Assembly: GCA_049695995.1 (NCBI GenBank)
Contig: JBAVTF010000085.1
Location: 2,205 to 66,204, forward strand
Reading direction: 5' to 3'
DNA: 64,000 nucleotides
Origin: Pirellulales bacterium
GTDB lineage: Bacteria > Planctomycetota > Planctomycetia > Pirellulales > UBA1268
The first letter of the stretch is position 1. Each line of letters opens with the position of its first letter. The translations under genes were made by a program, and so were the position numbers. Positions 5,395-63,494 of the stretch are shown here, piece after piece. The notes under the pieces are model-generated. The model did no database searches, was not told the origin of the DNA, and was given only the letters and a program-made list of their open reading frames with translations.

Positions 5395-8061
5395 ATGGAG
5401 ATTCTTTCGCTCAAGGCTCTGCGCGGTCCGAACCAGTGGGCTTCCTTCCCCTGCCTCGAGGCCTGGGTCGATCTCGGCCGCCTCGAGGATTTTCCGTCGC
5501 ATACCCTGCCCGGATTCAACGACCGCATCATGACGTGGCTGCCCACGATGATCGAGCACCGCTGCTCGATCGGCGAGCGGGGGGGCTTCTTCGAACGGCT
5601 CCGCACCGGCACGTGGATGGGCCACGTGCTCGAGCATGTCACGCTCGAGCTTCAGACGCTCGCCGGGACGCCGGTGGGCTACGGCCGGGCCCGTGAAGCC
5701 AACACCCGCGGCGTCTACAAGGTCGTGATTGAATACAAGGAGGAGTCGTTCGCGATCGAGTGCTTCCACACGGCGCATCGGCTGCTGATGGCCGCGATCG
5801 ACGACACCACGTTCGATGTCACGACAGAGGTGAAGCGGCTGCGCAAGATCCTGCTCGATGTGCAGCTCGGCCCCAGCACGCGGTCGATCGTCGAGGCGGC
5901 GGTGGCGCGGGGGATTCCCGTGCGCAGGCTCAACGAGGGCTCGCTCGTGCGGCTCGGCCACGGCGCGAAGCAGCGGCGGATCATGGCGAGCGAGACCGAT
6001 GCCACCGGCGCCATCGGCGAGTCGATCGCCCAGGACAAGGAGCTGACGCGGGCGCTGCTCGCCGAGTCGGGAATTCCAGTGCCCGAAGGACGGCCGGTGA
6101 ACGATGCGGCCGATGCCTGGCGGGTGGCGGCGGAGATCGGCACGCCCGTCGTCGTGAAGCCGCGGTATGGCAACCAAGGCCGCGGCGTATCGGTGAATCT
6201 CTCCGGGCAGGCCGAGGTCGAGAAGGCCTGGCAGATCGCCCGCGACGAGGATTCATCGGTCGTGGTCGAGCGGTTCGTGGCCGGCGACGATTACCGGTTG
6301 CTCGTGGTCGGCGGCAAGATGGTGGCCGCGGCCCGACGGTATCGCCCGGCGGTCGTCGGCAATGGGGCGTCGACGGTCCGGCAACTCGTCGATGCCGTGA
6401 ACGAGGACCCGCGGCGGTGTGGCGACCACGCCGACGTGCTCTCGCCGATTCCGATCGACGAGGTGGCTCTGGCCGTGCTCGCCGAGCAGGGACTCATGCC
6501 GGAGAGCGTGCCCGCTGCCGAGCGGGTGGTGTTCCTGCGGCAAAATGCGAATCTCAGCACGGGCGGCACGGCGGAAGACGTGACAGATGCCGTACATCCG
6601 GAGGTGGCCGCGCGGGCCGTCGAGGCGGCGCGGATCGTCGGCCTCGACGTGGCCGGCATCGACATCGTGACCACCGACATCTCGCAGACGCTCGAGTCGC
6701 AGCGCGGCGCGGTGATCGAGGTCAACGCAGCCCCCGGCCTGCGGATGCACCTCCAGCCCACTGTGGGCACACCTCGCGAGGTGGGCCGCGCAATCATCGA
6801 CGCGATGTTTCCCGAGGGTGAGACCGGGCGGATTCCCACCGCCGCGGTCACGGGCACGAACGGCAAGACGACCGTGGTACGACTCCTGTCGCACATCTCG
6901 GCCACCGGGGGCGCGACCGTGGGCACGACCTGTACCGAGGGCGTGTGGATCGGTGGCCGCCAGATCGATGCCGGCGACTGTAGTGGACCGCAGAGCGCCC
7001 GCCGCGTGCTCGCCAATCCGACGGTGACAACGGCGGTACTCGAGACCGCACGAGGCGGCATCCTCCGCGAGGGCTGTGGCTTCGATCGCTGCGACGTGGC
7101 GGTGGTCACCAACATCGGCAAGGGAGATCATCTCGGCATCGGTGAGATCGACACGCCGGAGAAGCTGGCCTGGGTGAAGGGGGCGATCGTCGCGGCCGTG
7201 CGGCCCGGCGGCGCCGCCGTGCTCAATGCCGCCGACCCGCTCGTCGTCGACATGAAAAAATGGTGCAAGGGCGAAGTTGTCTACTTCGCGCTCGACCCGG
7301 CCAACCCACTCGTCGTGGAGCATCTCGCCGCAGGCGGCCGCGCGGCCACCATTCGCGAGGGCTGGATCGTGCTCTGCGACGGCCCTCGTGAGACGCGTCT
7401 TGCGCAGCTCGATAAGGTACCGCTGGTGCACAAGGGCCTGGTGCCATTCCAGGTGGAGAACGCGCTGGCGAGCGCCGCCGCCGCCTGGCGGCTCGGTGTG
7501 CCGCTGGAGCTCGTGCGCATCGGTCTGGAGACGTTCGCGAGCAATGCCGACGGTTCGCCCGGCCGGTTCAATCTGCTCGATCTCGAGGGCGTGTCGATCG
7601 TAGTCGACTACGGCCACAACGTGCCCTCGCTCGAGCAGATCTGCCGCGTGATCCGTGGGCTGCCGCACGGCCGCCGGATCGCGGTCTATTCCGCAGCCGG
7701 CGACCGTCGCGACGACGACATGCTCGAACAAGGCCGCCTCCTGGGCTCTGAGTTCGACCGTGTGGTCGTCTACGAGGATGCCTACATCCGTGGCCGTCAG
7801 CCGGGCGACATCACGCGGCTCATCGGGCAGGGCGTCGCCGCTGCGACCACCCCGCGGGCCACGGCCGCCGAATCCGGAGGCAACTGGTGCCAGTCGGTGC
7901 AGCTCGTGCTGGAGGCGGCCCGGCCGGGCGACCTCGTGCTCGTTCAGGCCGATGTCGCCGAGGAGGCGTTGCCGTGGCTCGTGGAGAAGTACGGCAGCCG
8001 GCTGCGGGAAACGACGCTCGACGAGATGGCCGCGACGGTCGTCGCCCGCCGGCTGGCGTAG
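5395..8061 (+). CDS. cphA: Cyanophycin synthetase
   Basis: The N-terminus is MEILSLKALRGPNQWASFP. An ATP-grasp block reads VVVKPRYGNQGRGV and a Mur-ligase-like P-loop reads VTGTNGKTT. Length is 888 aa from the ATG at 5395; the longer ORF-track start at 5230 adds non-homologous residues. Confidence 0.9.
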   Translation: MEILSLKALRGPNQWASFPCLEAWVDLGRLEDFPSHTLPGFNDRIMTWLPTMIEHRCSIGERGGFFERLRTGTWMGHVLEHVTLELQTLAGTPVGYGRAREANTRGVYKVVIEYKEESFAIECFHTAHRLLMAAIDDTTFDVTTEVKRLRKILLDVQLGPSTRSIVEAAVARGIPVRRLNEGSLVRLGHGAKQRRIMASETDATGAIGESIAQDKELTRALLAESGIPVPEGRPVNDAADAWRVAAEIGTPVVVKPRYGNQGRGVSVNLSGQAEVEKAWQIARDEDSSVVVERFVAGDDYRLLVVGGKMVAAARRYRPAVVGNGASTVRQLVDAVNEDPRRCGDHADVLSPIPIDEVALAVLAEQGLMPESVPAAERVVFLRQNANLSTGGTAEDVTDAVHPEVAARAVEAARIVGLDVAGIDIVTTDISQTLESQRGAVIEVNAAPGLRMHLQPTVGTPREVGRAIIDAMFPEGETGRIPTAAVTGTNGKTTVVRLLSHISATGGATVGTTCTEGVWIGGRQIDAGDCSGPQSARRVLANPTVTTAVLETARGGILREGCGFDRCDVAVVTNIGKGDHLGIGEIDTPEKLAWVKGAIVAAVRPGGAAVLNAADPLVVDMKKWCKGEVVYFALDPANPLVVEHLAAGGRAATIREGWIVLCDGPRETRLAQLDKVPLVHKGLVPFQVENALASAAAAWRLGVPLELVRIGLETFASNADGSPGRFNLLDLEGVSIVVDYGHNVPSLEQICRVIRGLPHGRRIAVYSAAGDRRDDDMLEQGRLLGSEFDRVVVYEDAYIRGRQPGDITRLIGQGVAAATTPRATAAESGGNWCQSVQLVLEAARPGDLVLVQADVAEEALPWLVEKYGSRLRETTLDEMAATVVARRLA

Positions 8062-8107
8062 GCCCGTTGCTCCGCAACGGGCTGCCCGTCACCGAGTGAC
8101 GGGCCTA
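8057..8107. repeat. Double-hairpin REP-like element, family A (copy 2, inverted)
   Basis: The sequence is cgtaggcccgttgctccgcaacgggctgcccgtcaccgagtgacgggcctac. Its reverse complement differs from copy 1 at about 3 positions. It fills the gap between convergent cphA and the MCE gene and probably acts as a bidirectional terminator. Confidence 0.8.
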
Positions 8108-8116
8108 CAAGCTGAC

Positions 8117-11988: not shown

Positions 11989-12105
11989 CCGGTTTCCCTC
12001 CGCCTCGAGGAATGGCGGTAGAGACACCGCCCGGAGGGAGGATCGACGCTCGGGGCCGATTCCTGCGGCACGCACGGAGCAATCGACAGGAATTGCCAGG
12101 ATTGC

Positions 12106-12131
12106 CCGTAGTCCGCACACTCCGTGTGCGG
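12106..12131. repeat. Hairpin repeat family B (copy 1)
   Basis: The sequence is ccgtagtccgcacactccgtgtgcgg. The same unit occurs at 51872-51897 and inverted at 27494-27520. Confidence 0.75.
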
Positions 12132-15091: not shown

Positions 15092-15697
15092 TCAGGCGGC
15101 GGCCGTGTGGTGGCCGGCGTCGTCGGCTTGAGGCTGCACGGAGAGAATGGTTGGCCCGGCCGTGTCGGTAGCCGCTCGGCTGTCGGCGTCGATGCGGGCC
15201 AGTTCGCGGACAATCGCGGACTGCCAGAGTCGTCCGGAGTCGGCACGGGACAGCTGGTCGAGTGCCGCCCGGGCCTCGTCAAAGCGGCCCACGCGCCGGA
15301 GCAACGTGCCGAGCAGGAGCTGGGCTTCGCCGTCGGTGGAATCCCGCCTCAGGAGCGTGCGCAGCGTCGCTTCGGCGGTGAGCCAGTCGTGGGCGAGATA
15401 GGCGTTGCGGGCCTTCACGTAGAGCGTGTCCGACTCAGCATCGCGTCCGATAGCGAGCGGCGGCGGAAAGGCCGACACGGCCGAGGCGGTGGCGAGCGCC
15501 CAGATCACCGCCGTCGCCACCCAGACCGCGAGCCGTGCAGGCAGTTCGATCAGATCCGACCAGATCCAGGTGGTGAGCACCGCGACGTCGAGCGTGAGTG
15601 CGAACCCGACGGCGACGACGAGCCCGGGCAGACTCCCCCGCAGCCAGAGCCACGGTAGGCCCGGCCAGAGCAGGGTGAGGTAGCGGGCGGCACGCAT
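15092..15697 (-). CDS. Membrane-anchored TPR-like protein
   Basis: Two or three N-terminal TM helices are followed by TPR-like repeats (AYLAHDWLTAEATLRTLLRRDSTDGEAQLLLGTLLRRVGRFDEARAAL). Confidence 0.55.
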   Translation of the reverse strand: MRAARYLTLLWPGLPWLWLRGSLPGLVVAVGFALTLDVAVLTTWIWSDLIELPARLAVWVATAVIWALATASAVSAFPPPLAIGRDAESDTLYVKARNAYLAHDWLTAEATLRTLLRRDSTDGEAQLLLGTLLRRVGRFDEARAALDQLSRADSGRLWQSAIVRELARIDADSRAATDTAGPTILSVQPQADDAGHHTAAA

Positions 15698-15799
15698 AGC
15701 GTCGGCTCACGGGACGGAATCGCGGCGGAGTCTAGGAGCCGAACCTCGTTTCGCAAAGCCATATCTCCGCAGGCTTTATAGTGGCAATCCAGCAAAGGT

Positions 15800-15889
15800 A
15801 GGCGAGGGGGTCGGTGCAAGCTCGAGGAGCATTTGGACCGAGTCTTCGAGGTCCCGCGACGAGACTTGTACCGCCCCTGAGCCGGCGAA
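15800..15889 (+). repeat. ~90-nt near-identical structured repeat, family C (copy 1)
   Basis: AGGCGAGGGGGTCGGTGCAAGCTCGAGGAGCATTTGGACCGAGTCTTCGAGGTCCCGCGACGAGACTTGTACCGCCCCTGAGCCGGCGAA matches 51606-51695 with 2 mismatches, in the same orientation. It lies 50 nt upstream of the thiE ATG. Confidence 0.85.
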
Positions 15890-15939
15890 TCTCTCTCGAG
15901 CCGCTACAAAAAACGTACAAAAGAAGTAGGTAGAAAATC

Positions 15940-17043
15940 ATGCAGACCAGTGAAGGCGGGCAGGGTGGCGTGGCTGGAGTGTGGCGGGCGATCGACGCCT
16001 CGGCCAACCGGGCGGCCGAGGCGATCCGGGTGCTCGAAGACGTGGCCCGGTTCGTGCTCGATGACGTCGCGCTCACGAGCCTTGCCAAACAGCTGCGGCA
16101 CGAATTGGCCGCGGCCCTCGCGCACCGGGCGCTCGAGTCGCGGATCGCGCTGCGCGACGTGACCGGCGACGTCGGCGCGGGTATGGCGAAGCCGGCGGCG
16201 CTGCCGCGGGCTTCGGTCGCCGATCTCGTCGCCGCGAATGCCGCCCGTGGCACGCAGGCCGTGCGCAGCCTCGAGGAATGCGTGGCCGTGATTGTGCCCG
16301 AGGCGGCGGCGGCGTTCGAGCGGATTCGGTATCGCCTCTATGCGCTCGAGCGGGCGGCGGCGGCGGCCGTGCGATCGCGGGATCGGCTGGCAGGCGTCAG
16401 GCTCTGCGTGCTCGTCGATGGCCGCGCCGACCAGGCTGCGTTCGAGCGGCTCGTGGAATCGCTGCTCGAAGCGGGGGTGCGGATGCTGCAGATCCGCGAC
16501 AAGTCGCTGGCCGTGCCGGCGCTGGCGGCTCGTGCCGCCGCGGCCGTGGCGGTCGCTCGTCGGCACGACCGCGAGCGGCCGGCGATCGTGATCGTGAACG
16601 ACCGGGCCGACGTGGCGGCGGCGATCAACGCCGATGGCGTGCATACGGGGGCCGACGACCTCGCGACGCCGCTCGTGCGGCGGGTGATCGGCCCGGATCG
16701 GCTGCTCGGCCGCACGGCCCACGACTTTGCCGAGGCCCGGGCCGCGGTGGACGAGGGGGCCGACTACCTCGGCATCGGCCCCTGCTTCCCGTCGCACACG
16801 AAATCGTTCGGCGAGTTCGCGCCGCGGGAGTTTCTCGCGCGGGTGGCCACGGAGATTGCGATGCCGGCCTTCGCGATCGGGGGCGTAACCCGCGAGCGGC
16901 TCGATGCACTGGCCGCGCTCGGCATCCGCCGCGTGGCGGTGGCGTCGGCGATCACAGCGGCTGCGGACCCCGGGGCCGAGGCCGCGGCCTTCATCGAGCG
17001 GCTGGCGGAACTGGATCGGTCGGCAGCGGATCAGTCGACGTAG
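15940..17043 (+). CDS. thiE: Thiamine-phosphate synthase with an N-terminal helical extension
   Basis: The C-terminal ~210 aa carry the ThiE TIM-barrel blocks (LQIRDK, VNDRADVAAAINADGVHTGADD, GADYLGIGPCFPSHTK, AIGGV). The N-terminal ~150 aa are an extra domain. Confidence 0.8.
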   Translation: MQTSEGGQGGVAGVWRAIDASANRAAEAIRVLEDVARFVLDDVALTSLAKQLRHELAAALAHRALESRIALRDVTGDVGAGMAKPAALPRASVADLVAANAARGTQAVRSLEECVAVIVPEAAAAFERIRYRLYALERAAAAAVRSRDRLAGVRLCVLVDGRADQAAFERLVESLLEAGVRMLQIRDKSLAVPALAARAAAAVAVARRHDRERPAIVIVNDRADVAAAINADGVHTGADDLATPLVRRVIGPDRLLGRTAHDFAEARAAVDEGADYLGIGPCFPSHTKSFGEFAPREFLARVATEIAMPAFAIGGVTRERLDALAALGIRRVAVASAITAAADPGAEAAAFIERLAELDRSAADQST

Positions 17044-27493: not shown

Positions 27494-27520
27494 CCGCACA
27501 CGGAATGTGCGGACTACGGG
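27494..27520. repeat. Hairpin repeat family B (copy 2, inverted)
   Basis: ccgcacacggaatgtgcggactacggg lies between the convergent SGNH-like and mrp-like stops and is a probable bidirectional terminator hairpin. Confidence 0.7.
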
Positions 27521-50158: not shown

Positions 50159-51058
50159 ATGTCGCATGAATCCGCGGCCCGCAGGGGCATCATCCTCGCC
50201 GGCGGCTCCGGCACGCGGCTGCATCCCGCGACACTCGCCGTGTCGAAGCAACTGCTGCCGGTCTACGACAAGCCGATGATCTACTATCCGCTCAGCGTGC
50301 TCATGCTGGCGGGCGTGCGGGAGATCCTCGTCATCTCCACGCCACAGGACACGCCGAGGTTCAGCGGCCTGCTCGGCGACGGCAGCCAGTGGGGCATGAG
50401 CCTCTCCTATGCGGTGCAGCCGAAGCCGGAGGGCCTCGCCCAGGCCTTCCTCATCGGCGCTGACTTCGTGAGCGGCCGACCGTCGGTGCTCGTGCTCGGC
50501 GACAACATCTTCTACGGCCACGGCCTGGTGGAGCGGCTCGCGGCGGCGCGGGCCCGCACCCGCGGGGCAAGCGTGTTCGCCTATCCCGTCGCCGACCCGG
50601 AACGGTACGGCGTGGTCGAGTTCGACCGCGAGGGACGGGCGAAGAGCATCGAGGAGAAGCCGAAGGCGCCTCGGAGCCGCTACGCCGTGACCGGCCTCTA
50701 CTTCTACGACGAGCAGGTGGTCGACATCGCCCGCGCGGTGAAGCCGTCGCACCGCGGCGAACTCGAGATCACCGACGTGAATCGCACCTATCTGGAGCGG
50801 GGCGAACTGACGGTGGAGCTCCTCGGCCGTGGCGACGCCTGGCTCGACACCGGCACGCACGACAGCCTGATCGAGGCGGGGCAGTTCATCCAGTCGCTCG
50901 AAAAACGGCAGGGCCTCAAGATCTGCTGCCCCGAGGAGATCGCCTGGCGAAACGGCTGGATCGACTCGGCCCGCCTGGCTGCCCTCGCCGAACCGTTCCG
51001 CAAGAGCGGCTACGGCGAATACCTGCTCGCCATCATGCAGGACAGCGTGTTCTCGTGA
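50159..51058 (+). CDS. rfbA: Glucose-1-phosphate thymidylyltransferase
   Basis: Contains [33 protein letters not shown] and EITDVN. Confidence 0.93.
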
Positions 51059-51591
51059 TCGTCACCACGACCGACATCGACGGCGTGCTGATCCTGGCCC
51101 CCAAGGTCTTCGGTGATTCCCGCGGCTTTTTTTTCGAGAGCTTCAATCAGCGGGTGTTCGACGAGGCGGTCGGCAGGCCGGTGGCGTTCGTGCAGGACAA
51201 CCACAGCCGCAGCGGTCGCAACGTGCTCCGCGGTCTGCACTACCAGGTGGAGCGGCCGCAGGGAAAGCTCGTGCGGGTGGTGTCGGGCAGCGTGTTCGAC
51301 GTGGCCGTCGACATCCGCCGTGAGTCGCCCACCTTCGGCCGCTGGGTGGGCGTGGAGTTGTCGGCCGAGAACAAGCGGCAGCTCTGGATTCCGCCCGGCC
51401 TCGCCCACGGCTTCGTGGTCCGCAGCGAATCGGCCGACTTCCTCTACAAGACCACCGACTACTGGTTCCCGGAACACGAGCGGTGCATCCGCTGGGACGA
51501 CCCCGACCTCGCCATCGACTGGGGCCTCACCGAACCCCCGCTCGTCTCCACCAAAGACGCCGCCGGCACCCCGTTCGCTTCGCTCTCGTAG
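51055..51591 (+). CDS. rfbC: dTDP-4-dehydrorhamnose 3,5-epimerase
   Basis: Contains [32 protein letters not shown] and AHGF. Its start overlaps the rfbA stop. Confidence 0.92.
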
Positions 51592-51605
51592 CTCGAGTCA
51601 CAGGG

Positions 51606-51695
51606 AGGCGAGGGGGTCGGTGCAAGCTCGAGGAGCATTTGGACCGAGTCTTCGAGGTCCCGCGACGAGACTTGTACCGCCCCCGAGCCGGCGAG
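51606..51695 (+). repeat. ~90-nt structured repeat, family C (copy 2)
   Basis: Matches 15800-15889 with 2 mismatches and starts 15 nt after the rfbC stop. The core (51602-51691) is flanked by the 8-nt direct repeat CGAGTCAC (51594-51601 and 51692-51699). Confidence 0.85.
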
Positions 51696-51717
51696 TCACC
51701 CGCTGTGGCGTGGGTTC

Positions 51718-51851
51718 GGGGCTGGCCATGCCCCGAGAGCCGGACGCTCGCTTCGGGCATCCCTGCCCTTCGCTCGCTCGATGGCGGCTGCGGTCTCGGC
51801 ATCCTGCCTTCGCTTGCCGCCAACGCCGGCTTCGGGGCAGTGGCCAGCCCC
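51718..51851 (+). repeat. 134-nt element with ~18-nt terminal inverted repeats, family E (copy 1; MITE-like or structured RNA)
   Basis: The ends are GGGGCTGGCCATGCCCCG...CGGGGCAGTGGCCAGCCCC. Internal blocks (GCCGGACGCTCGCT, CTTCGCTCGCTCGATGGCGGC, CATCCTGCC) are shared with the reverse complement of 59207-59339. Confidence 0.8.
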
Positions 51852-51871
51852 TCACGGCGTTTTGGTTCGCG

Positions 51872-51897
51872 CCGTAGTCCGCACACTCCGTGTGCGG
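51872..51897. repeat. Hairpin repeat family B (copy 3)
   Basis: The sequence ccgtagtccgcacactccgtgtgcgg is identical to 12106-12131. Confidence 0.75.
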
Positions 51898-51968: not shown

Positions 51969-53831
51969 TCAGTTCGTCAGAAGCTTGCCTATTTCAGTGG
52001 CGAGGATGATGCCCACGCCCATGAGTGATTCGCCTGCAATCAGGCCGCTTGAAACGGGCACGGTGTAATCCTCGGCGGCTTTGGGGGCGGCTTTCGCTGC
52101 CAGCCAGGCGAGAAGGGCGCCGGCGAACATCGAGATGGCGTTGAATGCCGGGATCACGCCGGCGATGCCCAGGCCCGTCGTCGAGGGGAGCCAGGGTTTC
52201 CAGTGGGCGGGGCTGAACTCTTCCAGGAGCGTGAGCACGACACCGAGCAAGGCGCCGACCCCGATCGCCTCCATGGCCCCGGCCGGGAGCGCGTCGAATC
52301 CCTTGGCGAGCAGCAGGGCCACGCTTTCCCAGACCTTGGCCGAGGGGGCCGGCAGCGACTCGGAGCCGAGTCGTGACGGGTCGGACTGCACGACGAACAG
52401 GTAGGCGGGCACGGAGACGAGCGTGCCGGCGATGACGCCGAAGAACTGTGAGATCGTCTGCTTGCGCGGGTTGCCGCCGAGCAGATAGCCGCTCTTGAGA
52501 TCGGTGAGGAGATCGGCGGCGTGGGAGGCGGCGCCGGCGGTGATCGAGGCGGTCATCAGGTTCGTGGTGATGTTGCCGGGAGCAATGCCGCCGTAGATGA
52601 GTTGGGTGATTTTCCCCATGGCGCCGATCGGCGTGATGTCGGTCTCGCCAGTGGCCCGGGCGGCCACGATCGAGAGCAGGAACGTGACCAGCACGGCGAG
52701 GATGCCCATCCACCACGAGATGCCGAAGAGCCAGTGGCCGAGCACAACGCATGCGGTGCCGAAGACGAGCGAGCCCGCGATGAACCAGGAGGCTGGCACT
52801 TCGACGCGAGCCAACGGGTCGTCGGCCGCGGGGCGTGGGCCGCCGATGATCGCCGACAGCCCGCCGAAGGCCCGCAGGATCGTCCGCCACTTGAGGGCGA
52901 AGGAGAGCAGGCCCGACGTGACCATCATCGCCGTGGCCGGCCAGAGCACCCACGACACGATCCCGCGGTAGCCGGGGCCGACGATGCCCTGGGCGACGAG
53001 CGTCGGGCCGATGATGCCGTAGCAGATGAGCGAGCCGACGAGCATCGAGGCAGCCACCCGCATCCCCATGATCGCGCCGGCCGCCACCATGATCAGCGAG
53101 CCCTCGAAGCCGATGGTGTATTTCGTGAGCCAGTCGCGGGCTGCGGCCACTGGCAGCAGCGGGATCTCTGCGGGAAAGGCCCAGGCGGCGAGCCGTGTGA
53201 ACTGGGGCACGAGGTCGCGCCACAGGGCGACGAGACCGCCGCCGATGGCTGCCAGGAAGAGCGATCGGCCCTTGGCTGCCGCAGCGGCGGAGCCGGCGTG
53301 AAGGCTGCGGAGCGTCTCGGCGGTCGCGATGCCGGAGGGGAAGGGAAGCTGGTCGATGTTGATGAGCTGCCGTTTGAGCGGGATGGCGAGGCACACTCCG
53401 AGCAGGGACACGGCGCCGATCCAGAGCCCGACTTCCCAGCCGGTGAGCAGCCGGCCGGTGGTGAGCGTGAGCGCGGGGATCGCCGACACGAGGCCCGCGC
53501 TCGACATGTAGCCGGCGGCGCTGGCGGCGCTCGACATCGTGTAGTTTTCGAGCAGGCTGAACGGCCGGTCACGCCAGCCGGGCACGACCTGTTCGAGAAA
53601 CTTGAAGACGGCGTAGGCGATGATGCAGGCGGTGATCGTGACGCCGAGGCCCCAGCCGGTCTTGAGGCCGACGTAGAGATTCGAGATCGACATCACGCCG
53701 CCGATCACCATGCCGGTGATCACGGCCCGCGGCGTGAGCTGCACGGCGTGATCGCCGGCGTAGACGTTGTCGAGCCACCACCGCGCCGCCTCGCGGTCGT
53801 CGGTGAACGGCGGATGCTCGTGGGCATGCAT
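51969..53831 (-). CDS. OPT-family oligopeptide transporter
   Basis: This 620-aa polytopic protein has an N-terminal block LTPRAVITGMVIGGVMSISNLYVGLKTGWG that is characteristic of OPT-superfamily transporters. Confidence 0.8.
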   Translation of the reverse strand: MHAHEHPPFTDDREAARWWLDNVYAGDHAVQLTPRAVITGMVIGGVMSISNLYVGLKTGWGLGVTITACIIAYAVFKFLEQVVPGWRDRPFSLLENYTMSSAASAAGYMSSAGLVSAIPALTLTTGRLLTGWEVGLWIGAVSLLGVCLAIPLKRQLINIDQLPFPSGIATAETLRSLHAGSAAAAAKGRSLFLAAIGGGLVALWRDLVPQFTRLAAWAFPAEIPLLPVAAARDWLTKYTIGFEGSLIMVAAGAIMGMRVAASMLVGSLICYGIIGPTLVAQGIVGPGYRGIVSWVLWPATAMMVTSGLLSFALKWRTILRAFGGLSAIIGGPRPAADDPLARVEVPASWFIAGSLVFGTACVVLGHWLFGISWWMGILAVLVTFLLSIVAARATGETDITPIGAMGKITQLIYGGIAPGNITTNLMTASITAGAASHAADLLTDLKSGYLLGGNPRKQTISQFFGVIAGTLVSVPAYLFVVQSDPSRLGSESLPAPSAKVWESVALLLAKGFDALPAGAMEAIGVGALLGVVLTLLEEFSPAHWKPWLPSTTGLGIAGVIPAFNAISMFAGALLAWLAAKAAPKAAEDYTVPVSSGLIAGESLMGVGIILATEIGKLLTN

Positions 53832-53886: not shown

Positions 53887-54040
53887 ACAAGCCCTGAGCG
53901 CGAGCGAGGGGATCACGCGGCGGAAGCCGCGGAGGCATTGCCACAACTCCGGCGCCGCCGACGCTTCCGCATCGGGATCCCCCGGCTTGTGCCTGGGGGC
54001 TTTGATGAGAAAGGATCCCCCGGCTTGCGCCTGGGGGCTT
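53887..54040. repeat. Repeat family D cluster (one right-arm unit plus two tandem left-arm units)
   Basis: ACAAGCCCTGAGCGCGAGCGAGGGGATC lies at 53887-53914. GGATCCCCCGGCTTG(T/C)GCCTGGGGGCTT lies at 53975-54003 and 54013-54040. The same arms form a palindrome at 61701-61772. Confidence 0.75.
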
Positions 54041-54071
54041 GGATCAAGGTGCCCCCTGGGGGGCGGCGTCC

Positions 54072-57324: not shown

Positions 57325-59193
57325 ATGACGGATCACGAATCCATGACTGCAGCAGCCGCGGGTGTCGCGAGTGAGCCCGACTTCGGCGGCTTCGACCACA
57401 TGGTCGAGTCGCTCGCCCGCTGGAGCGGGTCGCTGCCGCAGTGGCCGCCGGCCGGCCGCGTGCAGGCCGAGTGGCAGGCGATTGAGCCGCGGCTTGACCG
57501 GGCCCGACGCGAGCTGTCGCGGGTGCTCGTGGTGGGCGTGGTGGGCGGCACGGGCACGGGCAAGAGCACGCTCGTGAACGCGCTGGCAGGGCAGGTGGTG
57601 ACCGACGCGGGCGACGTGGCGAGGCCGACCACGACGAGCCCGATCGTCGTGGCGGCACCGGATGTCGATCTCTCCTGGCTGCCGGTGGAGGCGATGGGGG
57701 CGCGGGTCGTCCGCAGCGATGCGCCGGCCGTCGCCAACATCGTGCTGGTCGACTGCCCAGATCCCGACACGCAGGCCGAGCCTGATGCCGCCGCTGTATC
57801 GGTTGCCGCGCCGGCTCGGCCGAGCGACACCAATCGCAACCGCGATCTCCTGGAGGCCGTGCTGCCCGCCTGCGACGTGCTCCTGCTCGTCGCCACCGCC
57901 CAGAAATACCGGTCGTGGATCGTGGCCCGCGAGGTGGCCGCGTTCGCGCCGGGACGGCCGCTGTTCTTTGTGCAGACGCATGCGGCGCGGGATCCCGACA
58001 TCCGGGGCGATTGGCAGCGGGAGCTCGAGTCGCAGGGCTTCAGTGTGCCGCGGATCTTTCGGCTCGACGGCGTCGAGGCGGCGCGGCGCGCCGCAGCCGG
58101 CCTCGAGCCTGAGCCCGGCTTTCGCGACCTCGTGGCGGCGATCGACGAGGAGCTGGTCGGCCGTGCCGCCCGCCGCGTGCGCCGCACCGGCGCCGTCGAT
58201 CTCACGGCCTGGTTCACGCAGCAGTGCCGTGGGCAACTCGGGCCCCTGCGCGGCCCAGTGGAACAGCTGGCCGCGGGCGTGCGAACCGAGCGGTCGCGGC
58301 TCGAGGGGCTGCTCGCCACGTCGATCTCCGCGCAGCTGCGCGGCCAGCGTCACGGCTGGCAGCGGCTCGTCACCGACGAGATCGTGCACCGCTGGCACGG
58401 CGGTCCCTTCGCCACGTTTCTGCACGCGGTCTCGGCGGTCGCCGCGCTCTGGCAGCGGGTGCGGCCGGCGCCCGGCGTGATTGGGCGGCTCGTCACGGGT
58501 GGCTCCGCCGCGGTGACGACACACGACACCGCCGGCTGGCAGTCGGTGGCGGAGCTGGGCCTCTCCGAAGCCGAGGTTGAGCAGTCGCGGACGGTGCTCG
58601 CGGGGCTGGCGGCGCGGGCGCGGATCGGTGAGCCGCTCGTGAGCCGCCCGCGACTGGAGACCACGCGAGTGCAGTCGCTCGCTGCAGCCGTGCTCGACCG
58701 CACAGGGCAGTGGCTCGGCGGCTCCATCGGCCGCCTGGTCGCCGACCGGCGGGGCCGGGTGGCAGGCCCGCTCGTGCACTGGGCGTTCGAGCTGCTCTTC
58801 ACGGGCCTGTTCGTGGCCGTGCTCGCGCGTGCCGGCTGGAGCTTCTTCTACGGCCACCTCTGGATGGGGCGGCCTGTGAGTGGCACCGGCTTTCTCCAGG
58901 AAGCGCTCGTGTGGCTCATGCTCTGGGGACTATGCCTCCGCTGGGCCGTCTTCGGGCTGGTGCGACGCGGGCTCGACCGCGACATCGCGACGGTCGTGGA
59001 TGGTGTGCCGGCGGCGCGGCTCGTCGATCCACTGCTGGCTGACTTCGCCGAGGCGGCCGCGCAGGTGACTGAGTTTCTCGATGGTGGCGATCGGCTGGCG
59101 GCTGAGGCGGAGCAGATGGCGGCGGCTCTCGGCGAGCCGGTTGGCGGCCTCGGCCGGCTACGGGCGATCTCCGACCGCCGCCCCTCTTGCTGA
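57325..59193 (+). CDS. Membrane-anchored P-loop GTPase, dynamin-like (paralog 2)
   Basis: The ATG lies 1 nt after the upstream stop. G1 is GGTGTGKS (57544-57567). The G3-like motif is LVDCPDPDT and the G4-like motif is ATAQKY. A helical stalk-like region is followed by a two-helix hydrophobic hairpin (LVHWAFELLFTGLFVAVLARAGW...ALVWLMLWGLCLRWAVFGLV). Confidence 0.75.
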   Translation: MTDHESMTAAAAGVASEPDFGGFDHMVESLARWSGSLPQWPPAGRVQAEWQAIEPRLDRARRELSRVLVVGVVGGTGTGKSTLVNALAGQVVTDAGDVARPTTTSPIVVAAPDVDLSWLPVEAMGARVVRSDAPAVANIVLVDCPDPDTQAEPDAAAVSVAAPARPSDTNRNRDLLEAVLPACDVLLLVATAQKYRSWIVAREVAAFAPGRPLFFVQTHAARDPDIRGDWQRELESQGFSVPRIFRLDGVEAARRAAAGLEPEPGFRDLVAAIDEELVGRAARRVRRTGAVDLTAWFTQQCRGQLGPLRGPVEQLAAGVRTERSRLEGLLATSISAQLRGQRHGWQRLVTDEIVHRWHGGPFATFLHAVSAVAALWQRVRPAPGVIGRLVTGGSAAVTTHDTAGWQSVAELGLSEAEVEQSRTVLAGLAARARIGEPLVSRPRLETTRVQSLAAAVLDRTGQWLGGSIGRLVADRRGRVAGPLVHWAFELLFTGLFVAVLARAGWSFFYGHLWMGRPVSGTGFLQEALVWLMLWGLCLRWAVFGLVRRGLDRDIATVVDGVPAARLVDPLLADFAEAAAQVTEFLDGGDRLAAEAEQMAAALGEPVGGLGRLRAISDRRPSC

Positions 59194-59206
59194 CAATACG
59201 CCGTGA

Positions 59207-59339
59207 GGGGCTGCCCGTGCCCCGGGAGCCGGTGTATGCCGCCGAGCGCAGCCAGGATGGCGGAGCGAAGGCGGCATCCGAGCGAGCGAAGAACAAGATG
59301 TTTGTAGCGAGCGTCCGGCGACGGGGCATGGGCAGCCCC
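59207..59339 (-). repeat. 133-nt TIR element, family E (copy 2, inverted relative to copy 1)
   Basis: The ends are GGGGCTGCCCGTGCCCCG...CGGGGCATGGGCAGCCCC. It begins 14 nt after the GTPase-2 stop. Homology to 51718-51851 was read block by block. Confidence 0.8.
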
Positions 59340-59439
59340 GAACTTTCACCAACTGGGTGAACCACCAGTCGGGGGCACAGGCTCGTGGTGGTATCATCCG
59401 TGCTTGTGCGGTCATCGTGCCGCCGGGCGGTCTCGCAGG

Positions 59440-61652: not shown

Positions 61653-61700
61653 TGCGTCGTGGGCGGTTGGAGGGTCGGCCCTGCTGCCGCTTCCGCGGCA

Positions 61701-61772
61701 GGATCCCCCGGCTCGCGCCTGGGGGCTTGTATGAGACACTCACACAAGCCCTGAGCGCCAGCGAGGGGATCC
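61701..61772. repeat. Repeat family D, complete imperfect palindrome
   Basis: The sequence is GGATCCCCCGGCTCGCGCCTGGGGGCTTGT-atgagacactcac-ACAAGCCCTGAGCGCCAGCGAGGGGATCC. The arms are about three-quarters complementary. Confidence 0.75.
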
Positions 61773-61886: not shown

Positions 61887-62669
61887 TTACTTGACCGAAA
61901 CCGTCCGGCTCACCGCCACGACCGCCTTGCTGTCGACCTTCTTCGAGGCCGAGGCATCGGGCGTCGGGGCAGCCGGCTCGACCGTCGCACCGCAGGCCGG
62001 CTCGCAGCCACACGCGGGCTCCGCACCGCAGCCGGGCTCGCAGCCAGCGCTGCAGTCGGGCTCGCAGCAGCTGGTGCAGCTCTTGCGGCACTTCTTCGCG
62101 TTGTGGATAGCGCGGAGAAGGTCACGGATCGGGGTCGCACACTTCTTCACACCGCAGCAGCCAGCGGCAGCACCGCAGCTCGGCTCGCAGCAGCCAGCAC
62201 CGGCGTCGCAGGCCGGCTCCGCACAGCCGTTGCCGGCGTCGCAGGCGGGCTCAGCGCAACCGTTGCCAGCACCGCAGGCCGGCTCGCAGCAGCTATCGCC
62301 GCAGCAGCCATGGTGCTTCCGCTTGCACTTCTCGAACAGGCCCTTCAGCCCGCCGAAAAGGTCATGCTTCTTCCGCAGACCGCAGCAGCTCGCGCCACCG
62401 CAGCATCCAGCACCGGCGTCGCAGGCCGGCTCGCAGCAGCCGTTGCCGGCGTCGCAAGCGGGTTCTGCACAGCCGTTACCAGCACAGGCATTGCCAGCAC
62501 CGGCATCGCAGCCGGGCTCGCAGCAGCCAGCACCGGCATCGCAGCCGGGCTCACAGCACGAGGTGCAGCCCTTATGGCCGAGCATCTTGTTCAGGAGCTC
62601 GAAACCGAAGGACTGGCTACAAACGGTGACGCCCAGAACCAGCGCACCGAGAAACATCATACGCTTCAT
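61887..62669 (-). CDS. Secreted cysteine-rich repeat protein (CCEP(A/G)CDAG(A/N)G units)
   Basis: AAGGAG lies upstream of the ATG at 62669. The signal peptide is MKRMMFLGALVLGVTVCSQSFG. About a quarter of the mature residues are Cys, in repeats such as CCEPGCDAGAGCCEPGCDAGAGNACAGNGCAEPACDAGNGCCEPACDAGAGCC. Basic spacers (RKKHDLFGGLKGLFEKCKRKHHGCC) separate the repeat blocks. Confidence 0.7.
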   Translation of the reverse strand: MKRMMFLGALVLGVTVCSQSFGFELLNKMLGHKGCTSCCEPGCDAGAGCCEPGCDAGAGNACAGNGCAEPACDAGNGCCEPACDAGAGCCGGASCCGLRKKHDLFGGLKGLFEKCKRKHHGCCGDSCCEPACGAGNGCAEPACDAGNGCAEPACDAGAGCCEPSCGAAAGCCGVKKCATPIRDLLRAIHNAKKCRKSCTSCCEPDCSAGCEPGCGAEPACGCEPACGATVEPAAPTPDASASKKVDSKAVVAVSRTVSVK

Positions 62670-63102: not shown

Positions 63103-63130
63103 TTGACATCCCCATCGCAACCGTTAAACT
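63103..63130 (+). promoter_or_regulatory. Sigma-70-like promoter for the riboswitch transcript
   Basis: TTGACA (63103-63108), a 16-nt spacer and TAAACT (63125-63130) place the predicted TSS just before the riboswitch 5' end. Confidence 0.35.
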
Positions 63131-63139
63131 CTGCCGACG

Positions 63140-63330
63140 ACTCTGGTGGCCGGGAGGAAGCATCTGCTTTCGTCAGGCAAACAGGGAACTCCGGTGTGAA
63201 TCCGGGACGGCCCCGCCGCTGTGACCAGGCGCCGAGGTCGGCTGTGTCGAGCCATTGCGGTGCCTGTGTGGCCCGCGAGAAGGCATGCAGCCGGCTGAGC
63301 CTGGGAGTCAGAAGACCTACCAGGTGTCAG
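63140..63330 (+). promoter_or_regulatory. Cobalamin (B12) riboswitch
   Basis: The conserved core is readable: AACAGGGAACUCCGGUGUGAAUCCGGGACGGCCCCGCCGCUGUGACC (63180-63226), GCCAUUG...GAGAAGGC (63251-63284) and the B12 box GGGAGUCAGAAGACCUACC (63303-63321). This parallels the E. coli btuB leader blocks AGGGAAUCCAGUGCGAAUCUGG...CGCAGCGGUAAGG, GCCAUUCGGUGGGAAG and AGCCCGAAGACCUGCC. Confidence 0.85.
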
Positions 63331-63494
63331 GAGTCTGCCGGACCGCGAGGGCGGAATGGTGGGCACGGTCGAGTGATCGACCGGTCGCAAGGCACTCAGG
63401 ATCCGCTCCTGCAAGCTCCCGCTTCGCCGACGGTCGCGCCTGCGCCTGCATGCGCGTGCCCGGGCTGGGCGTGCGCGTGCAGGTCGGCAGTGGC

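Follow-up and report, generated by a model that had tools for sequence, protein, structure and literature searches.

The window analysed here, a 64,000-nt stretch of a contig from a Pirellulales bacterium, contains two copies of a non-coding repeat of about 90 nt, located in two intergenic spacers (Table 1). A repeat search returned them as a 99-nt direct repeat (family D6; 15793–15891 and 51599–51697) with 96% identity, and pairwise alignment disclosed a shared core bordered on either side by unrelated DNA. A core 42-mer occurs exactly twice in the window, against zero occurrences expected from shuffles. Comparison with about 90 other copies of the family fixed the boundaries listed in Table 1, within which copies 1 and 2 differ at two positions, 15799 (T/G) and 15878 (T/C). 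The original prediction, made from the letters of this stretch, had described a near-identical repeat of ~ 90 nt in the same orientation with dissimilar flanks; this description was confirmed, including the two differences and the location of both copies on the + strand. Fifty-two nt lie between the end of copy 1 and the ATG of the ThiD2-ThiE fusion gene at 15940, and 11 nt between the rfbC stop at 51591 and the start of copy 2, so that the distances proposed earlier (50 nt and 15 nt) were about right.

Table 1. Positions of the repeat, its structural parts, neighbouring genes and other elements in the window
Feature	Position	Strand	Remarks
TPR gene beside copy 1	15092–15697	−	
TATAGT box	15777–15782		kept in locus L025
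5' extension of copy 1	15783–15796	+	weakly conserved, A-rich; GGCAAUCCAGCAAA, compare GGCAAACCAAAC in other copies
Copy 1 of the repeat	15797–15887	+	divergent spacer between the TPR gene and the thiD2-thiE fusion gene
5' arm, copy 1	15801–15823	+	pairs with 15863–15883; covarying pairs
Conserved upper part and tip, copy 1	15824–15862	+	from fold and covariation
Tandem G.A steps, upper part of copy 1	15824–25/15861–62, 15827–28/15858–59, 15840–41/15848–49		
Tip helix, copy 1	15835–39/15850–54		GGACC/GGUCC
Tip loop, copy 1	15843–46		UCUU
3' arm, copy 1	15863–15883	+	GA CUUGUACCG CCCCU GA GCC; pairs with 15801–15823
ThiD2-ThiE fusion gene beside copy 1	15940–17043	+	no TPP riboswitch detected upstream
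rfbC beside copy 2	51055–51591	+	
Copy 2 of the repeat	51603–51693	+	convergent spacer between rfbC and the OPT transporter gene
OPT transporter gene beside copy 2	51969–53831	−	
GTAG-tagged REP-type palindrome CCGTAGTCCGCACACTCCGTGTGCGG	12105–12131, 27494–27520, 51872–51897		96% complementary between copies (I15, I21); one shares the spacer with copy 2
REP hairpins of GTAGGCCCGT type	1579–1647, 8048–8108		61-nt inverted repeat, 89% complementary (D18/I1)
Long-hairpin repeat of ~165 nt	51700–51865, 59184–59351 (inverted)		also in at least 8 related loci
Short repeat GGATCCCCCGGCTTGYGCCTGGGGGCTT, three copies	53950–54048 and 61676–61736		D5
Tandem repeats with a 33-nt period (GCAGCCGGGCTCGCAGCAGCC...)	61986–62572		D1, D4, D8; probably encode a low-complexity protein segment
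Cobalamin riboswitch (Rfam RF00174)	63127–63338	+	80.6 bits, full length; sole Rfam match in the window

Position counts across copies indicate that sequence conservation fades ~ 4 nt beyond the hairpin on either side. Outside this limit, A is weakly enriched at −13 to −6 (about 35–40% A), and a weak YAC motif follows the 3' end at +6 to +8. Eighty-one distinct copies were used to build a covariance model (R1), which in the window matched only copy 1 (107.7 bits, E = 6e-21) and copy 2 (110.4 bits), the next match reaching 18 bits. No Rfam match to the element was obtained at gathering score throughout the window or at E ≤ 10 in the segment 15700–15960, which bears out the initial view that it is not a TPP riboswitch. 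Exact-protein look-ups for ThiE and RfbC of the window found no record; relatives of the window loci were reached via homologue search.

Family size and host genomes

To estimate how widespread the repeat is, we used the 22-mer of its tip (GGAGCATTTGGACCGAGTCTTC) in an exact search that covered one genome per bacterial and archaeal species. At least 95 stretches were found; among the matches listed, all belong to about 10 MAGs with the labels Pirellulales, Planctomycetia or Planctomycetaceae, and to one further MAG labelled Ca. Kuenenia. The 22-mer is often located at contig ends among the matches listed, and the repeat accounts for contig breaks of this clade's MAGs at these sites. It was also present in 90 stretches of JGI metagenome contigs. 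Viral contigs, phages and plasmids gave no match to the 22-mer, which rules out that the element is part of a repeat known from phages or plasmids.

Across related loci, model R1 detected 120 copies (729 kb searched) and an HMM 233 copies (1.34 Mb searched), genome and metagenome loci being partly redundant. About 25 copies not picked via the 22-mer were found in 658 kb, and the window itself holds two per 64 kb. A density of about one copy per 25–30 kb would, by extrapolation, correspond to some hundreds per genome. The repeat is a high-copy family and not the two-copy motif that was noticed at first.

Host genomes fall into two clades, with 85–94% identity inside each and, for shared genes, about 68–82% between them. 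The clade of the window comprises MAGs with contig prefixes CAMDDA, JBJTIE, and JAPOJV. The CAMDDA01 MAG (L025 and other loci) is labelled 'Candidatus Kuenenia stuttgartiensis' (MiE-22jul19-122), and it shares 89% DNA identity over 8 kb with the planctomycete window, which is high in GC, the copies themselves having 65–74% G+C. The label looks wrong.

Secondary structure across the family

The + strand folds into one long imperfect hairpin, hereafter the rod, with a minimum free energy of −49.8 kcal/mol (z = −3.6), while the − strand folds worse (−38.5 kcal/mol, z = −1.65). The 5' arm is composed of GGC, a G.A/A.G step (15804–05), GGGGG, the bulged U15811, CGGUGCAAG, the bulged C15821, and UC. 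At four places in the rod CGAG lies opposite CGAG, giving the succession C-G, G.A, A.G, and G-C. Three of these four become Watson-Crick in some copies, by a change of GAG to CTC on either arm; other conversions of this kind are CGAGA to CUCGA, CGCGA or CGUGA. The whole element is palindromic, and terminal inverted repeats are present (arms AGGCGAGGGGGTCGG... / ...CCGCCCCCGAGCCGG). The conserved unit is 86–91 nt long, or 107–118 nt in the ~ 20% of family members which carry a 23-nt insert in, or just 5' of, the 3' arm. Subfamilies retain the arms and have, in place of the tip, other hairpins that are unrelated and measure 15 to about 60 nt. The GAGC...GCGA step below the tip (15827–30/15856–59) is invariant in essentially all copies; of the pairs of alignment A2, G34-C64 is invariant in 110 of 110 copies and C35-G63 in 109 of 110.

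Pairing is kept by compensatory changes. In the 81-copy alignment, changes on both sides were observed at 14 of 29 pairs. In the 110 distinct copies, which were aligned to the model in a manner that favours structure somewhat, 92% of cells are paired and 21 of 29 pairs show compensatory changes. None of 500 shuffles reached the observed values, and slid controls gave 33–49% pairing. Typical stem variants are GGTGCAAG/CTTGTACC, GGCGGAAG/CTTCTGCC, and GGCGACTG/CAGTYGCC. A single unbranched hairpin that has an exchangeable tip and four tandem G.A motifs (CGAG/CGAG) agrees with these data.

The fold proposed originally had three parts, of which the 14-bp closing helix was recovered in the minimum-free-energy fold and is strongly supported by covariation, the long stem being compensated as described above. 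The inner hairpin CUCGAGG/CUUCGAG and the GGAC/GUCC pseudoknot can both be drawn, yet neither belongs to the predicted fold or is backed by comparative data. Substitutions on the CUCGAGG side of the inner hairpin are not matched in CUUCGAG, with 8 and 2 breaks in A2 columns 30 and 29, respectively. They are matched in the 3' arm instead (CGAGA to CGCGA, CUCGA or CGUGA; G31-C67 to C-G), as expected for one continuous rod. When the inner hairpin was enforced, the best energy was −44.2 kcal/mol, compared with −49.8 kcal/mol for the rod. The segments GGACC and GGUCC, assigned to an H-type pseudoknot, form the nested tip helix of the rod; the pseudoknot would leave 0 nt between its two 3' strands (a third loop of zero length) and appears sterically implausible.

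We have also addressed the question of strand asymmetry. The wobble G15816.U15869 is G.U in 83 of 110 distinct copies and G-C in 15 of 110. Overall, G.U exceeds A.C by 109 to 10, and by 26 to 10 if the conserved wobble is left out, indicating that one strand is under constraint. Such features might be those of a structured host RNA, an sRNA or a cis-acting element, encoded by the + strand, read via the GAGC/GCGA step, the wobble and the tip, and functional at many sites. This reading draws on the strong covariation, on the better fold of the + strand, and on the wobble, which is retained in several stem backgrounds and accompanied by the excess of G.U over A.C on the + strand. The identity of the tip 22-mer in clades whose genes are only about 68–82% identical is in line with it as well, as is the higher conservation of orthologous copies relative to their flanks. 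However, covarying helices are equally expected for a DNA hairpin and for a structured RNA family, and since transposases acting on single-stranded DNA also read strand-specific mismatched hairpins, strand asymmetry does not single out RNA. The tip can be replaced in subfamilies, Rfam holds no match, and conservation ends within ~ 4 nt of the hairpin, with no conserved flank resembling a promoter or a terminator. Together with the arrangement and turnover of copies described in the following section, these observations make a host RNA very unlikely.

Genomic context and turnover of copies

Neighbouring genes were assigned by a simple and crude GC3-based gene caller, which reproduces the Pfam-supported genes of the window. 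For 107 copies, a gene was called on each side at a distance of up to 400 nt. Genes around the copy are convergent in 38 cases, tandem with the element in sense in 31, tandem with the element in antisense in 27, and divergent in 11. About 90% of these copies face at least one gene 3' end, and median distances to the facing stop codon are 33 and 51 nt. Surviving copies adjoin mostly gene 3' ends, in either orientation. The neighbours are unrelated housekeeping genes (e.g. moaC, nrdR, tsaD, miaB, fmt, guaB), and no fixed position or orientation relative to a coherent gene set was found, as all four arrangements occur. The orientation agreement of copies on the same contig, used as a proxy for replication direction, was mixed.

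Head-to-head pairs of copies, 10–40 nt apart, are frequent, and copies often adjoin GTAG-type REPs or other repeat families. The rfbC-OPT spacer of the window is a mosaic of several unrelated repeat families, and the same was observed in many related loci. Among the other repeats, REPs of GTAGGCCCGT type adjoin family copies in other genomes. Within 30–40 nt on both sides of the element, CTAC is three to four times commoner than GTAG on the element's + strand, which places neighbouring GTAG-type REPs mostly on the opposite strand.

A preference for gene ends could mean that the repeat is a domesticated two-way transcript-end element, that is, a terminator or a barrier to 3' exonucleases that works whichever way it is transcribed and is kept for this reason; a mobile origin is compatible with such a role. 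The proportion of copies facing a gene 3' end, the over-representation of convergent and depletion of divergent spacers, the tight spacing to the facing stop codon and the very stable hairpin all point in this direction, and the weak upstream A-rich stretch corresponds to a U-rich one after the hairpin on the − strand. REP elements act as such transcript-end elements in E. coli. On the other hand, selection against insertions into promoters predicts the same distribution, and the A-rich stretch is weak, at the A content given above. No U tract follows the + strand hairpin in either window copy, and the divergent promoter spacer in which copy 1 is located contains no gene end. In addition, close relatives have no copy, or have another hairpin, at the same site. 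A domesticated transcript-end element is possible, though we regard it as doubtful.

Comparison of orthologous spacers disclosed that copies are gained, lost, inverted, and homogenised between close relatives. Copy 2 is missing from metagenome contigs whose RfbC is 93–97% identical to that of the window. Its site in these relatives is taken, from the rfbC stop on, by a different rod-like hairpin element of 117 nt, right after which homology resumes. The 117-nt element (L097 2605–2722, also in L096 and L098) gave no R1 match. Downstream of rfbC, the long-hairpin repeat of ~ 165 nt occurs in both the window and L097, and is absent in L096. In L099, with 85% RfbC identity, a family member is located between rfbA and rfbC instead. 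Upstream of thiE, the CAMDDA MAG (L025, 89% DNA identity) carries a copy in the same orientation that is 98.9% identical to copy 1, while in the JBJTIE MAG (L087, 86–92% identity) the copy is inverted and its flanks are different. A second orthologous spacer with copies in opposite orientation, and with a REP adjacent, was found in L039 and L043.

Three filled and empty sites were recognized between genomes with flanks 86–96% identical. Their boundaries were taken from BLAST coordinates and read by eye, MAFFT alignments being poor. Filled sites are 120–160 nt longer than empty ones, exceeding the conserved unit of 90 nt, and clean insertion junctions were accordingly not obtained; deletion of whole spacers is an alternative cause of the difference. 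Presence/absence polymorphism at orthologous sites was observed, with junctions that are not clean. Orthologous copies are 90% identical overall, and 92–100% identical if they have the same insert state, compared with 72–76% in their 70-nt flanks. The 23-nt insert of the family differs within three orthologous pairs. Copies more alike than their flanks and differing in insert state point to conversion or replacement among copies.

These results add to the case against a host RNA. Tandem copies show no orientation preference (the 31 in sense are set against the 27 in antisense), all four arrangements occur, orthologous copies are inverted in sister genomes, and the presence of copies varies among close relatives. 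Occurrence in both orientations, the diversity of contexts, and the polymorphism make a regulatory RNA specific to one gene unlikely. A specific regulator of thiE or rfbC is unlikely as well. Of the possibilities raised originally, a small mobile element is the one favoured, whereas a gene-specific sRNA or cis-regulatory motif is not supported. For annotation, a false lead is removed in this way, as the window has no dedicated new RNA switch at thiE or rfbC.

Probable mobility and relation to known repeats

The element encodes nothing and is non-autonomous. No target-site duplication was detected: the longest words shared by left and right flanks equal those of the shuffled-pair control. A few 6–8-mers are shared between flanks in inconsistent registers, among them the 8-mer CGAGTCAC flanking copy 2, which was considered as a target-site duplication and rejected because it is not reproduced in register at other copies. 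An autonomous form or parent insertion sequence, with arms enclosing a gene, was not found in 1.34 Mb.

Features that define REPs and REPINs were inspected as well. A conserved GTAG tag is absent: the sequence at the 5' end is G-N-A-G, and among 94 copies the base N in front of AGGC is G (60 copies), T (22), A (10) or C (2). The unit of 86–91 nt is outside the range of REPs, which are imperfect palindromes of 20–40 nt. According to sequence inspection and folds, the arms pair mutually and are not palindromic individually, as would be required of the REPs in a REPIN. RAYT genes were searched for with E. coli YafM and IS608 TnpA, employed as probes only, and then by tblastn with a verified planctomycete RAYT. 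In 1.34 Mb around 233 copies, no RAYT gene flanked by or adjoining copies was found, and the sole RAYT is one orthologous pair, in L084 and L068. This gene (L084 3670–4596, − strand) matches Pfam Y1_Tnp and NCBIfam REP_Tyr_transpos (77 bits, with a cut-off of 80). Its flanks carry an inverted repeat of its own, 30 nt long and different (AAAAAGGTGCCAGCCACCAAATCTGGGCAA), and a copy of the family lies 2.2 kb away.

A classical REP/REPIN family mobilised by its cognate RAYT (Y1 HUH) transposase would agree with a high-copy intergenic palindrome that often forms inverted pairs and mosaics with GTAG-type REPs, with the missing target-site duplication and with the strand-asymmetric hairpin, and RAYT genes do exist in these genomes. 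It is nevertheless unlikely, given the unconserved GTAG tag, a unit of ~ 90 nt whose arms are not themselves palindromes, and the only RAYT being associated with a different flanking repeat and adjoining none of the 233 copies.

The repeat is best supported as a REPIN/MITE-like interspersed palindromic repeat, even though it does not pass the tests that define REPs and REPINs or, as regards target-site duplications, MITEs. With a probability of roughly 0.75, we interpret it as a high-copy palindromic family of ~ 90 nt that occupies non-coding spacers in a clade of freshwater Pirellulales-type planctomycetes, and that is moved and homogenised. The family would spread, or would have spread, as hairpin-forming DNA, the mobilising enzyme being encoded at another place in the genome. 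Mobility would probably proceed via a single-stranded hairpin intermediate; a single-strand-DNA mechanism of the HUH/Y1 type seems to fit best because target-site duplications are missing and the G.T wobble is strand-specific. Gene conversion may keep the copies similar to one another. If transcribed, whichever the direction, the hairpin (~ −50 kcal/mol) would probably act as a REP-like barrier or stabiliser at 3' ends. A secondary function at the 3' ends of transcripts, independent of orientation, would be plausible.

A host function could account just as well for the high conservation of the tip across the two clades, for the invariance of the GAGC/GCGA step and for the conserved wobble. Extending this, the repeat might be a host-retained, orientation-independent structured element and not merely a selfish one, with the GAGC/GCGA step, the wobble and the bulges read by a dedicated planctomycete protein. 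Such a protein could be a new, non-RAYT enzyme mobilising single-stranded DNA, or an RNA-binding factor defining transcript ends. We consider this proposal quite unlikely; if true, it would explain the identity of the tip across clades whose genes are about 68–82% identical.

Small repeats have barely been catalogued in the phylum, and the interspersed palindromic repeat described here contributes a well-defined family together with its covariance model. Its architecture is unusually regular: it combines tandem G.A steps at four CGAG/CGAG sites with a conserved wobble and a tip that can be exchanged. Long metagenome time series exist for the source lakes, in which gain, loss, and conversion of repeats could be watched in nature, and the same series can be used in the search for the mobilising enzyme.

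Among known systems, the family was compared with structured cis-acting RNAs of the type of the TPP riboswitch, which would be expected before thiE. Copy 1 resembles them in that it probably lies in the 5' leader of a thiamine gene, and in its covarying helices. It differs in having no Rfam match even at E ≤ 10, in the unrelated neighbours of the family in every arrangement, and in being inverted before thiE in a sister genome.

Similarity to the ERIC/IRU, Correia (NEMIS), and BOX/RUP elements of proteobacteria and streptococci extends to the size (about 90–150 nt) and to an imperfect palindrome that spans the whole element and is predicted to form a long RNA or DNA hairpin. These elements are likewise scattered between genes and co-transcribed with their neighbours, and they also have subfamilies with internal insertions and deletions. 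Sequence similarity to the planctomycete repeat is absent. Terminal inverted repeats are defined in Correia and other MITE-type elements, which also have target-site duplications (TA for Correia); in contrast, no target-site duplication was detected in the planctomycete repeat. BIMEs are comparable in that unrelated repeat families stand side by side, as in the rfbC-OPT spacer and many related loci, although the component families differ. BIMEs are bound by IHF and gyrase.

Close parallels are offered by the REP/REPIN and RAYT systems of E. coli and Pseudomonas (Bertels & Rainey 2011, PMC3116915; Di Nocera et al. 2013, PMC3733652). Both they and the planctomycete family consist of high-copy, non-coding, hairpin-forming sequences confined to spacers, mostly after genes, in either orientation and often as inverted pairs or mosaics. 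Largely vertical inheritance, conserved 'master' sequences, and insertion without target-site duplications are common to both as well. Unlike them, the planctomycete repeat does not conserve a GTAG or CGTC tag, is a single rod of 90 nt instead of two short palindromic REPs with a spacer, and has no RAYT gene flanked by its copies. With no description in the literature searched and no Rfam match, the family is apparently undescribed; the kind of repeat to which it belongs is a familiar one in bacteria.
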